This document shows, piece by piece, positions 19,026 to 58,994 of a stretch of DNA of 64,000 nucleotides. A model generated the notes under the pieces. The model was not told where the DNA came from, did not search any database, and was given only the letters and a program-made list of their open reading frames with translations. Each line of letters starts with the position of its first letter. Position 1 is the first letter of the stretch. Position numbers and translations under genes: made by a program. The stretch is taken from contig CAZWNL010000011.1 of the NCBI GenBank assembly GCA_964635615.1, positions 13,314 to 77,313 of the forward strand. The letters are read 5' to 3'. Origin of the DNA: an uncultured Bacteroides sp. GTDB lineage: Bacteria > Bacillota > Clostridia > Lachnospirales > Lachnospiraceae.

Positions 19026-20093
19026 ATGAAATTTATACACATATCTGACGTTCATTTAGGCTTGAAGCCTGACAGGACAAAAATATGGAGTGATGAAAGA
19101 GCAGATGAATTATGGGACAGCTTTAAAAACATTGTAAAGCTCTGCGAGGAAAAAAAGGTGGAGCTGCTTCTTGTTTCAGGCAATCTTTTTCATGCATCAC
19201 CAACCCTGCAGGAGCTTAAGAACCTTGATTTGCAGCTTAACAGGCTTTCGGTGACTAAAACCGTCATCATAGCAGGCTCCTGTGATTATATTGAGGAGAA
19301 CTCGGTCTGGGAGCGGTATGATTTTAATTCAAACACGCTTGTCATGCCGAGGGATAAGGCTGCAAATGTATATTTTGAGGATATAAATGTATGTATTACA
19401 GGCTACAGCTACGGAAAGCCTGAGTACACTGCCAAAATACTTGAGAAATTAAAACCCGGCAGAGAGGGTGCATATAATATTCTTCTGGGACATGGAGGAG
19501 ACAAAAACCATATGCCCTTTTCAAAAGACAGGCTTGCAAAAACAGGCTTTGATTATATTGCACTTGGCTACATCCGAAAGCCAACGCATATCCTTAAAAA
19601 TAAAATGGCATTTCCAGGTTGTCTTGAGCCTCTTGATTACACTGATACAGGGCGCAGGGGGTACATTTATGGAGAGGTTGACGAGGAAAAAAATACGACC
19701 ATTTCATGGGTGGCAAGCAATAAGAGAAGCTATATTAACATGACGCTGGAGCTTCAGCCTGACACCACAAATGCTGACATTTTAGATATTGTGGAAGCCG
19801 AGATAAAAAACCGTGGTAAGGAAAATATATACAGAATACTTCTCAAGGGAACGATTGACAGCAGCCTTGAGATTAATTTAAGTGGAATTGTACGAAGATA
19901 TAATATAAATGAGGTTATCGACAGGACAGAGTATGATTACAGTGTGGACGAGCTGTATCATGGCAACGAGAATAACCTTTTGGGTAGATTTATAAGCAGG
20001 ATGAAGGATGAGGAAAGCGAAGAAGCTGAGGAAATAAGACAAAAGGCACTTGAATACGGAATAAGTGCGCTGTTGGGAGTTGGAGACAGATAA
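19026..20093 (+). CDS. SbcD/Mre11/YhaO-like metallophosphoesterase with degenerate metal-binding motifs
   Basis: SDVHLG retained; GNLFH, GSCD and LGYIR replace the canonical GDLFD, GNHD and LGHIH; FPGCLEPLDY, G.RGY. Confidence 0.8.
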   Translation: MKFIHISDVHLGLKPDRTKIWSDERADELWDSFKNIVKLCEEKKVELLLVSGNLFHASPTLQELKNLDLQLNRLSVTKTVIIAGSCDYIEENSVWERYDFNSNTLVMPRDKAANVYFEDINVCITGYSYGKPEYTAKILEKLKPGREGAYNILLGHGGDKNHMPFSKDRLAKTGFDYIALGYIRKPTHILKNKMAFPGCLEPLDYTDTGRRGYIYGEVDEEKNTTISWVASNKRSYINMTLELQPDTTNADILDIVEAEIKNRGKENIYRILLKGTIDSSLEINLSGIVRRYNINEVIDRTEYDYSVDELYHGNENNLLGRFISRMKDEESEEAEEIRQKALEYGISALLGVGDR

Positions 20094-21782
20094 ATGTATC
20101 TTAATAAGCTATCACTTAAGGATTTTGGAAAATTTAATAACAATGAAATAGACCTTAAGGAGGGCATCAATCTTATCTGTGTGGACAGTGAGGCAAAGAG
20201 GTTTAGCCTTAAGGAATTTGTCGTTGGTATGTTTTACGGAATAAATCGTTTCAAGGGCATTGAGAAAAATGATGATAACTACGAGCGTTTAAAATCAATC
20301 AGTGGGAGAAATTCTTCAGGCAGAGTATATGTAAAAAAGGATGAAAATTCATATTTTCTTGAGAGAAATTTTCAAAAACGCGGCGATAAGGTAAATGTTC
20401 TTGACATTAAAACAGGACGTGAGCTTATGCTGAAAAACAGCAATAATCTCTATGAGACATTTTTTGATACGGACAGGAGTACATATGCAGGCAGCTTATG
20501 TATTTCAAAACCAAAGGCAGAAAATGCAAAGGAACTGTCAAACGAACTTACGGAATATGCAGGTAACATGACACTGTGCGGTGTGGCAGATATAAATAAG
20601 ACAGAAATAGTGGAAGCTCTGAAGGATGAAAAAAGACAGTATGAGACAAGGTCGCTGGAACGTGAGGTCGAGGGCATACGTGAGCAGATAGGACGTTACG
20701 ATGGAGTGGAGGATAAGCTTAAGGCGGTAAGGGATGAAATAAGGGAAGTTGAAGAAGAATTTGCAATGGAAACTGCCAAGAGAAAGCGTGAGGCAAGAAA
20801 ACTTATTGAGACTGACAAGGGCGTAACCTATGAGGAGGACGACACTTTAACTGATAATCTTGATGAGCTTACAATGAACAGTACATTTACGGATGAGGAA
20901 GATGACGATGAGAATAAGGAGGAAAAAATAACTGATAAGCTATGGTTCATTTTTCTTACCGGCTTATTTGTCATTGCCGTTATAACGACTATGGTATATA
21001 TTCTTCCTTTTGAGAAGGGTGTAAGGCAGCTCTTTGTTGTTTGTACGGTATTATTTGTAATCATAACGATAGTGGAGGGCTTATATGCCAAGGGTGTATT
21101 TGATGGTGATGTCACAACACCCTCGGAGGAGGACTTTAAACGTGTTATACAGGAGCTTGAGAAAAAGAAGGCAGAGGAGGATGACGTTAAGATAGACATG
21201 TCTTTTGCCGAGGAATTTATGGAAAAGAAAACGGAGCTTAAGGCAGAGGAGCATGATTTGCTTGAGGATAAAAGGAGAAAGCAGGAACTTCTCGATGAGC
21301 TTGGCATTGTGGAGGCAGAACTTCAGAAAATGCAGAAGGAAATTCATGCGATTAATCTTGCAATAAATACGATAAACGAACTGTCAACAAACGAACAGGA
21401 GGAAATGAAAAACCTGTTTACAGCGTCAGGAGACTTTATATCGCCACTTACAAACGGCAGATATGACGATGTGCGTTTTGAGATAAATGGACGGGTAGCA
21501 GTTGGCAAAAACGGAATCTATGACGGCATTGACAGACTCTCCTATGATGACCTTAAAATGGTATATATGTCAATGAAGCTTTCGGCGGCAAAGTTGCTGA
21601 ATAAGGACAACATGCCTATTGTAGTTGAGGATTGGTTTACGGAGAACGAAGGCTTTGCACCGGAGCTTATACGTTGCATGGGAAAGGTCGGTGCAGATCA
21701 GATAATACTTCTCACAGCGAATCAGAATGCAAAACAGAAGCTTGACAATGCAGGAATAGAGTACGAGTATGTCGCCATGTAA
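20094..21782 (+). CDS. YhaN/SbcC-like coiled-coil protein with two central TM helices and degenerate ABC-ATPase motifs
   Basis: MYLNKLSLKDFGKF N-terminus, long coiled coils, TM pair. No GxxxxGK(S/T); signature region reads LSYDD; Walker B region reads IVVEDWF. Confidence 0.7.
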   Translation: MYLNKLSLKDFGKFNNNEIDLKEGINLICVDSEAKRFSLKEFVVGMFYGINRFKGIEKNDDNYERLKSISGRNSSGRVYVKKDENSYFLERNFQKRGDKVNVLDIKTGRELMLKNSNNLYETFFDTDRSTYAGSLCISKPKAENAKELSNELTEYAGNMTLCGVADINKTEIVEALKDEKRQYETRSLEREVEGIREQIGRYDGVEDKLKAVRDEIREVEEEFAMETAKRKREARKLIETDKGVTYEEDDTLTDNLDELTMNSTFTDEEDDDENKEEKITDKLWFIFLTGLFVIAVITTMVYILPFEKGVRQLFVVCTVLFVIITIVEGLYAKGVFDGDVTTPSEEDFKRVIQELEKKKAEEDDVKIDMSFAEEFMEKKTELKAEEHDLLEDKRRKQELLDELGIVEAELQKMQKEIHAINLAINTINELSTNEQEEMKNLFTASGDFISPLTNGRYDDVRFEINGRVAVGKNGIYDGIDRLSYDDLKMVYMSMKLSAAKLLNKDNMPIVVEDWFTENEGFAPELIRCMGKVGADQIILLTANQNAKQKLDNAGIEYEYVAM

Positions 21783-21789
21783 GTAAACC

Positions 21790-22076
21790 GATTGCACGAA
21801 GGCACACTTACAACATAAGCCTTGGCTTCGATGCATATAAAGTATACCATATAAAAACTCGCTTTCGCTCGTCTCATATGTCCTGAGGTGTCTGCGAAGC
21901 AGACGGAGTCCTGAGGACAATAACGTAGCGGTACTAAAAATTGCCGGTTTAAGAATCCTATTATATAAGGGTATCTTAGACCGGCAATTTAAGTACCGAC
22001 GTCTTCAAACGGTTTTTAATATGGTATACTTATATGCATTGAAGACAAGGCATTGTAAATTCGCCTTCGTGCAATC
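21790..22076. repeat. 287-bp nested palindromic element (copy A)
   Basis: Perfect 14-bp outer IR GATTGCACGAAGGC/GCCTTCGTGCAATC; core CGCTTTCGCTCGTCTC...CAAACG shared with 39655..39825 and 58887..58994; two inner hairpin modules. Confidence 0.85.
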
Positions 22077-34263: not shown

Positions 34264-34525
34264 TTTTACATTCCTCTCTTAAGTAAATTTTATCTATAAG
34301 CAAAACTCAATTTTTGCCGACATCCGTTGTACAATAAATAAAATACCCTATAAATATATCACAGATTATAAGGAAAAAGAAGTAAAAATGAAAGCTTTGG
34401 TAAAAAAACATGTGTGACTGCCGCTTATCGTAGGTTTATGTAGCTTTATTAAGCGTATAGTCTGATATATAATTATTATAATATGAGTCTTGAGGTATAA
34501 GGAAAAATTTTTTAAAAACAACAAT

Positions 34526-36094: not shown

Positions 36095-36203
36095 AAAAAT
36101 ACAAATAAAAAAGCATGTTTATAAGGCTGTCGTTCATGGATTTAATTCTGTGTGCGGCAGCCTTATTTTGTCGGTTTTTGTGTGCGCTGTGAGCAGAAGG
36201 AAG

Positions 36204-38381: not shown

Positions 38382-39155
38382 ATGGGTTTTTTGAGATTAG
38401 ATAAATATCTGGCTGACGCAGGCAGGGGAACAAGAAGTGAGGTAAAACTTCTTATAAAATACGGCAGGGTAAGGATAGGCGACAGAGTAGTAAAAAAGCC
38501 TGAGGAAAAGGTTGATACCGATAAGGACAGCGTGTTTGTTGACGGACAGCCCGTGTGTTACTCGGAATTTGAATATTATATGCTGAATAAGCCTGCGGGA
38601 GTTGTTTCTGCCGTTACCGATAAAAAGGATAAAACGGTAGTGCAGCTTATCGACACGGAAAAAAGACGTGATTTGTTCCCTGTTGGGAGGCTTGACAAGG
38701 ATACGGAGGGGCTTATTATCATAACGAATGATGGTAAGCTTGCAAATGAACTTCTGTCACCCAATAAGCATGTGGAAAAAACGTATTATGCCATAGTCCG
38801 TGGAACTGTTACGGACGATATTATTTTGCGGTTTCAGGAAGGGCTTGACATAGGCGATGACCGCATTACTAAGCTGGCAGGGCTTAAATTGGTTGACTCC
38901 ATAATATGCGAAGGGGCAGTAAAGAAATTGAATAATGAAGCTGTGGCAGGTGGCAAGCTTTGCCACGTGGAAATTACCATTACCGAGGGCAGGTTTCATC
39001 AGATAAAGAGAATGTTTAAGGCTGTAGGCATGGAGGTTATATATTTAAAACGCCTTTCCATGGGAGGGCTTGTGCTTGATAAAGTGCTGCCTTGTGGCTC
39101 ATGGAGGCGGCTTAGTGAGGATGAGCTTAAGCTGTTGAAGAGACTGCCGCACTGA
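38382..39155 (+). CDS. RsuA-family pseudouridine synthase
   Basis: S4 domain RLDKYL; LNKPAG; GRLDKDTEG; EGRFHQIKRMF. Confidence 0.9.
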   Translation: MGFLRLDKYLADAGRGTRSEVKLLIKYGRVRIGDRVVKKPEEKVDTDKDSVFVDGQPVCYSEFEYYMLNKPAGVVSAVTDKKDKTVVQLIDTEKRRDLFPVGRLDKDTEGLIIITNDGKLANELLSPNKHVEKTYYAIVRGTVTDDIILRFQEGLDIGDDRITKLAGLKLVDSIICEGAVKKLNNEAVAGGKLCHVEITITEGRFHQIKRMFKAVGMEVIYLKRLSMGGLVLDKVLPCGSWRRLSEDELKLLKRLPH

Positions 39156-39225
39156 GAATATCTATACTATGATATTCTTAGTGTGGCAGCCCCTTAGAAA
39201 TATTTATGTATTATCGGGAGGCTTT

Positions 39226-39654: not shown

Positions 39655-39825
39655 AAGGTGGGACGTTCCATTAAGAATATTTACATCATAATAACAAAAA
39701 TACGCTTTCGCTCGTCTCCGACGTAACGGTACTAAGGTGCCAAAATACGTCACCTAAGTACCGACGTCTTCAAACGATTTTTTTATATTATGATGTAAAT
39801 ATTCTTAGTGAAACAGTCCCACCTT
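39655..39825. repeat. 171-bp nested palindromic element (copy B)
   Basis: Outer IR AAGGTGGGAC/GTCCCACCTT; arms AAGAATATTTACATCATAATA/TATTATGATGTAAATATTCTT; core CGCTTTCGCTCGTCTC + 52-bp insert + CAAACG. Confidence 0.85.
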
Positions 39826-58886: not shown

Positions 58887-58994
58887 GGGGCTGTCGCACT
58901 AGGAGTATTTATATCATAATATAAAAATCGTTTGGAGACGAGCGAAAGCGTATTTTTGATATTATGATATAAATACGCTTAGTGTGACAACCCC
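58887..58994. repeat. 108-bp palindromic element (copy C, empty form, opposite orientation)
   Basis: Outer arms GGGGCTGTCGCACT/AGTGTGACAACCCC; centre reads CGCTTTCGCTCGTCTC|CAAACG on the minus strand, with no insert. Confidence 0.85.

Follow-up and report, generated by a model that had tools for sequence, protein, structure and literature searches.

The palindromic intergenic elements found in the 64-kb stretch of DNA analyzed here (the window) are members of a large, lineage-specific and apparently unpublished family of nested foldback repeats. With moderate confidence, we interpret the family as non-autonomous repeats that are palindromic over their whole length, lie at gene 3′ ends, acquire their different states largely in place, and spread in trans. 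The initial annotation had described three elements, here called copies A, B, and C, that share a 16-mer core followed by CAAACG, and had read them as a palindrome family caught in three states. The core CGCTTTCGCTCGTCTC was indeed exact at all three sites (21860-21875 and 39703-39718 on the plus strand, 58935-58950 on the minus strand), compared to 0.18 exact occurrences expected by chance in the window and to at least three matches in 0 of 100 shuffles. The distance from core to CAAACG was 0 nt in copy C, 52 nt in copy B (39719-39770), and 130 nt in copy A (21876-22005), and the GGTACT...AGTACC stem, the GTCCTGAGG...GTCCTGAGGAC module, and the CGTCTCC/CGTCTTC direct repeat were present as described. 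Empty, one-module, and two-module forms exist as the annotation had it, but A, B, and C belong to a large family as separate members and do not represent one locus in three states; the empty junction is unique to copy C among the 47 cores of the genome.

Copy A (21790-22076) occupies the space between convergent stop codons at 21782 and 22081. It is a single-junction element with a large AATTGCCGG payload hairpin, an extra 45-nt module, and "middle"-type arms homologous to the middle arms of the double-junction form described below. The long side of its junction (21860-21935, plus strand) begins at the core, ends with ACGTAGC-GGTACT (21923-21935), and is broken up by the GTCCTGAGG-hairpin-GTCCTGAGGAC module (21880-21918, plus strand), which was found at four loci genome-wide, three times at this same position within a long side and once inside a payload hairpin. 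The payload hairpin itself (aaaaattgccgg...ccggcaattta, 21936-21991) forms the innermost layer, and the short side of the junction, AGTACCGACGTCTTCAAACG (21992-22011, plus strand), is a 20-mer with 24 exact occurrences genome-wide (reversed control, 0). Copy B (39655-39825) represents the commonest single-junction form, termed alpha, and carries a small 23-nt payload hairpin between a long side, CGCTTTCGCTCGTCTC-C-GACGT-AA-CGGTACT (39703-39733), and a short side (39757-39776), both on the plus strand. Copy C (58887-58994) has alpha arms around a collapsed junction on the minus strand (58929-58950; read on the plus strand, CGTTTG at 58929-58934 and then GAGACGAGCGAAAGCG at 58935-58950), where the core abuts CAAACG, the GGTACT stem and payload are missing, and a 7-bp direct repeat, CGTCTCC/CGTCTTC, bounds the junction. 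Folded as single-stranded DNA, copies A, B, and C reached −84.9 kcal/mol (z = −15.6), −48.0 kcal/mol (z = −11.6), and −25.6 kcal/mol (z = −9.1), respectively.

Several smaller observations concern the same window. In the left arm of copy A (21790-21800), GGGCTGTTG has been lost between TTG repeats, and CAATCG at the end of the right arm (22066-22076) mirrors CGATTG in the left flank; one arm of copy A may have been recopied from the other, with the palindrome thereby extended into unique flanking sequence. The genes directly upstream of copy A (19026-21782) encode a protein weakly assigned to Metallophos (SbcD-like) and a 562-aa protein without a Pfam match. Two shorter relatives are also present. 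A decayed member at 39142-39191 keeps the outer stem GACTGCCGCAC/GTGTGGCAGCC and an alpha-arm remnant and has no junction, and a mini hairpin at 36125-36162 consists of the family outer stem GGCTGTCGTTC...GTGCGGCAGCC with T-rich sequence after it.

To describe the family as a whole, we searched the genome that contains the window (G000; 2.83 Mb in 41 contigs, 99.3% complete). Allowing up to two mismatches, the core occurred 47 times (reversed pattern, 0), and seven of these cores lie at contig ends; the repeats break short-read assemblies. The family occupies about 99 loci, and short hairpins of the outermost stem only (S0) numbered 47 (controls, 0 to 2), two of them in the window; many keep alpha-arm remnants such as TAAGAATATTCTTA. 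Across the listing of all copies, S0 is GGGCTGTCGCAC...GTGCGACAGCCC. Inside it lie arm pairs of several families, namely, alpha (copies B and C), beta, and middle (copy A), and between successive helices lies a lopsided junction, J, with the long strand CGCTTTCGCTCGTCTC-N-GACGT-AA-CGGTACT and the short strand AGTACCG-ACGTC-TT-CAAACG. Payload hairpins enclosed by the GGTACT and AGTACC stems vary widely. Copies A, B, and C each contain a single J, whereas the commonest large form, of about 390 bp, contains two in opposite polarity, one long side per strand, and in 9 of 10 adjacent core pairs the long sides are on opposite arms. Elements measure about 100 to 390 nt, are palindromic throughout, and contain no open reading frames.

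The distribution of the core is narrow. It was detected in 5 of 24 other species of the genus and in 0 of 16 other genera of the order, and 300 other genera of the family yielded 0 to 2 cores per genome, which is the control level. A close relative, Lachnospiraceae bacterium Mgla_MAG_2-bin_10 (G041), carries 54 cores, and G006 carries 15; G350 has 10 outer-stem hairpins but only two cores. A 31-mer from the long side of J was found in 0 viral contigs and in two metagenome contigs, a plasmid database gave no match to the elements, and a scan of genome contigs with the 16-mer returned mostly chance matches. Nothing in Rfam matched the elements at gathering scores; ranked by E value, the hits were generic plant microRNA hairpin models and Enterococcus sRNA_1300, all below threshold. 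Literature searches by topic and by sequence returned no description of this repeat family. The proposal of an undescribed element was upheld by the lack of an Rfam match at threshold, of a literature description, and of plasmid or viral matches; the element is also modular, non-coding, and multicopy, with presence-absence polymorphism between close species.

Family members are concentrated where genes end. Elements were found in 33 of 159 convergent intergenic regions (21%), 42 of 1,210 tandem regions, and 4 of 211 divergent regions (2%), so that about one in five convergent gene pairs of this gut bacterium ends in a giant hairpin. They begin 8 to 16 nt past stop codons, in agreement with the placement first reported for the window; for copies B and C the distance from the stop codon is 16 nt. 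Of 61 S0 stems, 33 are followed by a T-run and 39 are preceded by an A-run, against a background of 13% per side. With its G+C-rich stem and its A-run and T-run flanks, the outermost stem looks like a bidirectional intrinsic terminator, and the elements probably affect where transcription stops and how stable mRNA ends are. The orientation of the junction relative to the upstream gene showed no bias (8 against 5). At one locus (C4:28640-28960), the palindrome continues for about another 21 bp, overlapping the 3′ ends of both flanking genes (GCAGTAATGTAACAGAGCATATG and its complement), as it does in G041.

We then compared conservation within the elements to that of the surrounding DNA. Between G000 and G041 orthologs, non-flipped J differs at about 2 of 408 positions (~0.5%), whereas flanks differ by 6.7%; arms and payloads show a bimodal divergence of either 0 to 2% or 14 to 34%. 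Copy B and its G041 ortholog have no differences in 164 nt (flanks, 7.3%), and four alpha orthologs pooled have 10 differences in 656 positions, compared to 7.1% in the flanks, which are mostly coding. Whole alpha copies are accordingly four to five times more conserved than flanking DNA, a degree unusual for decaying selfish DNA, which points to a function at the level of the host. The near-invariant junction between fast-changing and still-paired arms offers a natural experiment in the survival of long palindromes.

Pairing is maintained by compensating change, as the initial annotation had suggested from the arms of the three copies. In 14 alpha copies (the type of B and C), 95.7% of cells are paired, and both partners had changed in 21 of 61 pairs, compared to 8.5 ± 1.9 in shuffled alignments and 4 to 9 when the partner was slid; all of these two-sided changes fall in the outer helix. 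For the helices of J across lineages (G000, G041, G006, G350, and two other MAGs), 9 of 18 pairs changed on both sides (3.7 ± 1.3 shuffled, 0 to 2 slid), a count to be taken with caution because the alignment rows were built by hand. The 16-mer core and CAAACG were invariant across these lineages. On its long side, J has extra bases that are able to fold into a mini hairpin, GC[TTTC]GC, for which one compensated variant (CACTTTCGT) was found. Read on the complementary strand, 43 of the 47 cores contain GCGNNAGC, and 40 of these read GCGAAAGC. DNA mini hairpins of the GCGAAAGC type (consensus GCGNNAGC) are extremely stable and exclude SSB at the priming site of phage G4 (PMC13037366). Unlike that priming site, the motif here is the bulge of a junction within long chromosomal hairpins. 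Mismatches of the G:U type (18) and the A:C type (16) are about equally frequent, favoring neither strand. Together with the absent orientation preference, this speaks against a role tied to a single RNA strand.

To see how the different states are related, we compared orthologous sites between species. Presence-absence polymorphism of elements was found between close species, and S0-only hairpins stood against full elements in both directions (C21:30811, C6:79604, and C13:66742). Asymmetric deletions at the short direct repeats GCC, GTG, and CGTCT leave unpaired remnants of one arm (C11:77488, C9:71735, and C15:68711), and the retention of such remnants identifies several of the shorter orthologous states as deletions. 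Interiors also change orientation. At C7:33853 the whole interior is inverted between species (compared to L158), and the G041 ortholog of copy A is the right half of a double-junction element that holds the same 56-nt inner hairpin, inverted yet identical at 56 of 56 positions. At the copy A site, G001 has the mini hairpin GGGGCTGTGACAGCCCC alone. At the copy C site, G041 has S0 with short arms and no core, and G001 has the GGGGTTGTCGCGGCAACCCC mini hairpin alone. The half-site at C1:39427 is long in G000 and short in G041, a difference that is arm-to-arm copying across an asymmetric loop. At C6:57838, the same S0 encloses an alpha interior in G000 and a beta interior in G041.

At C10:108442, a full alpha element is confined to G000, and five relatives share mini hairpins instead. 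Compensated differences in the outer stem make the locus look like a recent replacement of the whole hairpin rather than a loop insertion. The flanks of this locus (G000 C10:108100-108900) are 97% identical to those of G001 and G020, compared to about 91% at other loci, and given this unusual similarity an allele may have been imported by recombination. Because alleles appear to move between species in this way, gain and loss are not safely polarized. The sole junction resembling a clean insertion, at C8:61334, has a target duplication of at most 1 bp and may instead be ancestral, since an 18-nt remnant is kept in G001 and G020. The comparison of orthologous sites revealed no clean self-insertion. 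Growth by insertion of the element into its own loop, as first proposed, was not demonstrated: the empty junction is a singleton with a 7-bp repeat, and several short states retain remnants. One locus, C10:108442, does suggest a recent gain or replacement at a mini hairpin already in place, so that layered growth stands as a less likely alternative. As judged from these sequences, decay and rearrangement appear abundant and replacement possible, with no proven case of self-insertion, which is less probable than decay, flipping, or replacement.

We also searched for genes that could mobilize the elements. Mobilization by an HUH transposase (RAYT or IS200/605) had been proposed at the outset and found no support: the Y1 HUH family (PF01797) had 0 matches in G000, G041, G015, G020, G006, and G001, with controls positive in 6 of 14 genomes, and five element-bearing genomes had 0 matches to TnpB (PF07282) and 0 to Y2 (PF04986), the Y2 control being silent. 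A genuine IS110 match was detected in G041 only. In G000, we found no multicopy transposase, no pairs of terminal repeats 1 to 3 kb apart, and no related autonomous insertion sequence with the same ends as the elements. The only multicopy, mobile-like genes of that genome are PD-(D/E)XK "transposase" genes (PF12784, PDDEXK_2, Rpn-like) in two families of seven and five copies, the first represented by C13:66855-67745 with paralogs on C1, C2, C3, and C18 and the second located on C6, C7, C9, C1, and C16. One PF12784 copy adjoins a mini hairpin of the family and is missing from the G041 ortholog. These genes were rejected as the mobilizer because their copy number does not track that of the elements (G350 has three close homologs and two cores; G006 has a 39%-identical homolog and 15 cores). 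Loss of SbcD was likewise rejected as the reason that palindromes are tolerated. By the NCBIfam cutoff, canonical SbcD is absent from G000 and G041 but also from the element-free G008, and it is present in the element-bearing G001.

A sister subfamily, delta, provides evidence of movement. Delta is a second MITE family, 212 bp long, with terminal inverted repeats TAGNNATGAGCAAAAC and about 15 to 20 copies in G000 (among them C6:113149-113359, C2:191121-191331, C10:59304-59514, C1:180368-180603, and C26:13691-13767); a partial delta end lies in the window near 34300-34336. Its copies are flanked by 8-bp target duplications (e.g., ACAAATAA and AATATrTA), its center is a diverged copy of the J-payload unit, and internal-deletion derivatives reach down to 37 bp. 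A G041-specific delta insertion lies ten bases from the ortholog of copy C. The repeats, the target duplications, and this insertion indicate classical MITE movement for at least some of the superfamily. At orthologous sites of the alpha and beta forms, no target duplication was seen.

These observations bear on four alternatives to our interpretation. Growth in the manner of a Russian doll, with J-bounded palindromic modules inserting into hairpin apices (terminators, mini hairpins, or earlier modules) so that layers are added from the inside, would account for the constant outer-to-inner polarity of J in every layer, for the many unrelated payload hairpins between constant J sides, and for the occurrence of the same J-payload center within three arm families (alpha, beta, and delta). 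The wider distribution of outer-stem hairpins than of J, as in G350, and the contrast between the mini hairpins of five relatives and the full element of G000 at C10:108442 also fit. However, the model requires every inserted layer to arrive with mutually pairing arms, the single empty core is bounded by a direct repeat, the compensated outer stem at C10:108442 suggests that the hairpin was replaced in its entirety, several short states can be shown to be deletions, and neither a target duplication nor an enzyme was found. We consider this layered growth unlikely. A related proposal is that J is a three-way junction with a GCGAAAGC-type mini hairpin and serves as the site of a non-HUH, structure-specific enzyme that inserts, flips, or exchanges modules at the apices of terminator hairpins. 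This is more doubtful still; if true, it would amount to a novel mode of DNA movement operating on folded palindromes and would account for the different interiors found within unchanged outer stems.

A further alternative places the function in RNA, with the elements acting as transcribed 3′-end structures (terminators or mRNA stabilizers) or as a multicopy small RNA, J serving as the site of an RNA-binding protein, and DNA mobility being secondary. Starts shortly past stop codons, terminator-like flanks, and internal loops conserved while helices covary, the usual signature of a folded nucleic acid, agree with it, and the loop variants GAAA, GAGA, and GGGA fit GNRA on one strand. These variants also fit the DNA mini-hairpin consensus GCGNNAGC, though (PMC13037366), and the unbiased junction orientation, the interiors flipped between orthologs, the even mismatch types, and the subthreshold Rfam scores all weigh against an RNA role, to which we give as little credence as to the junction-specific enzyme. 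By far the least probable is a REP/REPIN-like element mobilized as single-stranded DNA hairpins by a Y1 HUH transposase (RAYT or the TnpA of IS200/IS605). Extragenic palindromes, a conserved unpaired motif, covarying stems, and alpha and beta forms without visible target duplication are what such an element would show, but the searches for PF01797 (with positive controls), TnpB, and Y2 (with its silent control) were negative, the GTAG head is absent, and the elements measure 100 to 390 nt rather than 20 to 40 nt.

We therefore return to in-place change of non-autonomous foldback repeats as the favored account. The different states largely arise in place through four processes seen at orthologous sites: deletions at direct repeats, inversion of the interior, arm-to-arm copying, and exchange of the interior while the outer stem stays the same. 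Self-complementary motifs create short direct repeats on the two arms, between which the deletions occur. Copy C would then most simply be a copy-B-type element that lost its payload between CGTCTCC and CGTCTTC; with these motifs flanking the junction, slippage across the payload hairpin is its simplest origin, and the 7-bp repeat would be the residue of a slipped-strand deletion. Spread would occur in trans by an enzyme that G000 does not encode, for which the behavior of delta as a classical MITE provides support. J might persist through a putative protein that recognizes its folded form or through a stabilizing effect on long palindromes. A protein that reads the junction, if found, could reveal a new structure-specific DNA or RNA enzyme.

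Known repeat systems share some of these features. The REP, BIME, and REPIN elements of proteobacteria, associated with RAYT, are likewise extragenic palindromes at gene ends with mosaic and inverted arrangements, a maintained hairpin, and roles in termination or at mRNA ends (PMC2817692). Unlike them, the present family comes with no detected RAYT or Y1 gene and no GTAG, is built of nested units of 100 to 390 nt instead of side-by-side units of 20 to 40 nt, and conserves an internal lopsided junction rather than the base of the stem (PMC2817692). MITEs such as Correia in Neisseria, RUP and BOX in S. pneumoniae, and those of Coxiella are also short, non-coding, multicopy intergenic sequences that form long hairpins and can supply terminators, and BOX is modular, as are the elements here (PMC3184786, PMC10969869, PMC5896051). 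The terminal inverted repeats and 8-bp target duplication of delta match a classical MITE; in contrast, alpha and beta have no visible target duplication or matching insertion sequence, and their arms vary around an invariant internal junction that is reused in nested layers of opposite polarity. PATEs derived from IS200/IS605 differ in that neither TnpA (Y1) nor TnpB was found in the element-bearing genomes. Integron attC sites also follow stop codons and are imperfect palindromes that conserve structure and extrahelical bases over stem sequence, with a central part of variable length, but the R″/R′ boxes (RYYYAAC/GTTRRRY) are absent here, the conserved part is internal rather than terminal, and the elements are scattered without a cassette array. 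The terminal hairpins of parvoviruses exist in flip and flop orientations, and large palindromes undergo arm-to-arm gene conversion. Although the elements described here are chromosomal bacterial repeats and not replicon ends, they may be analogous to these systems in presenting an asymmetric interior in both orientations between arms that copying would keep complementary.
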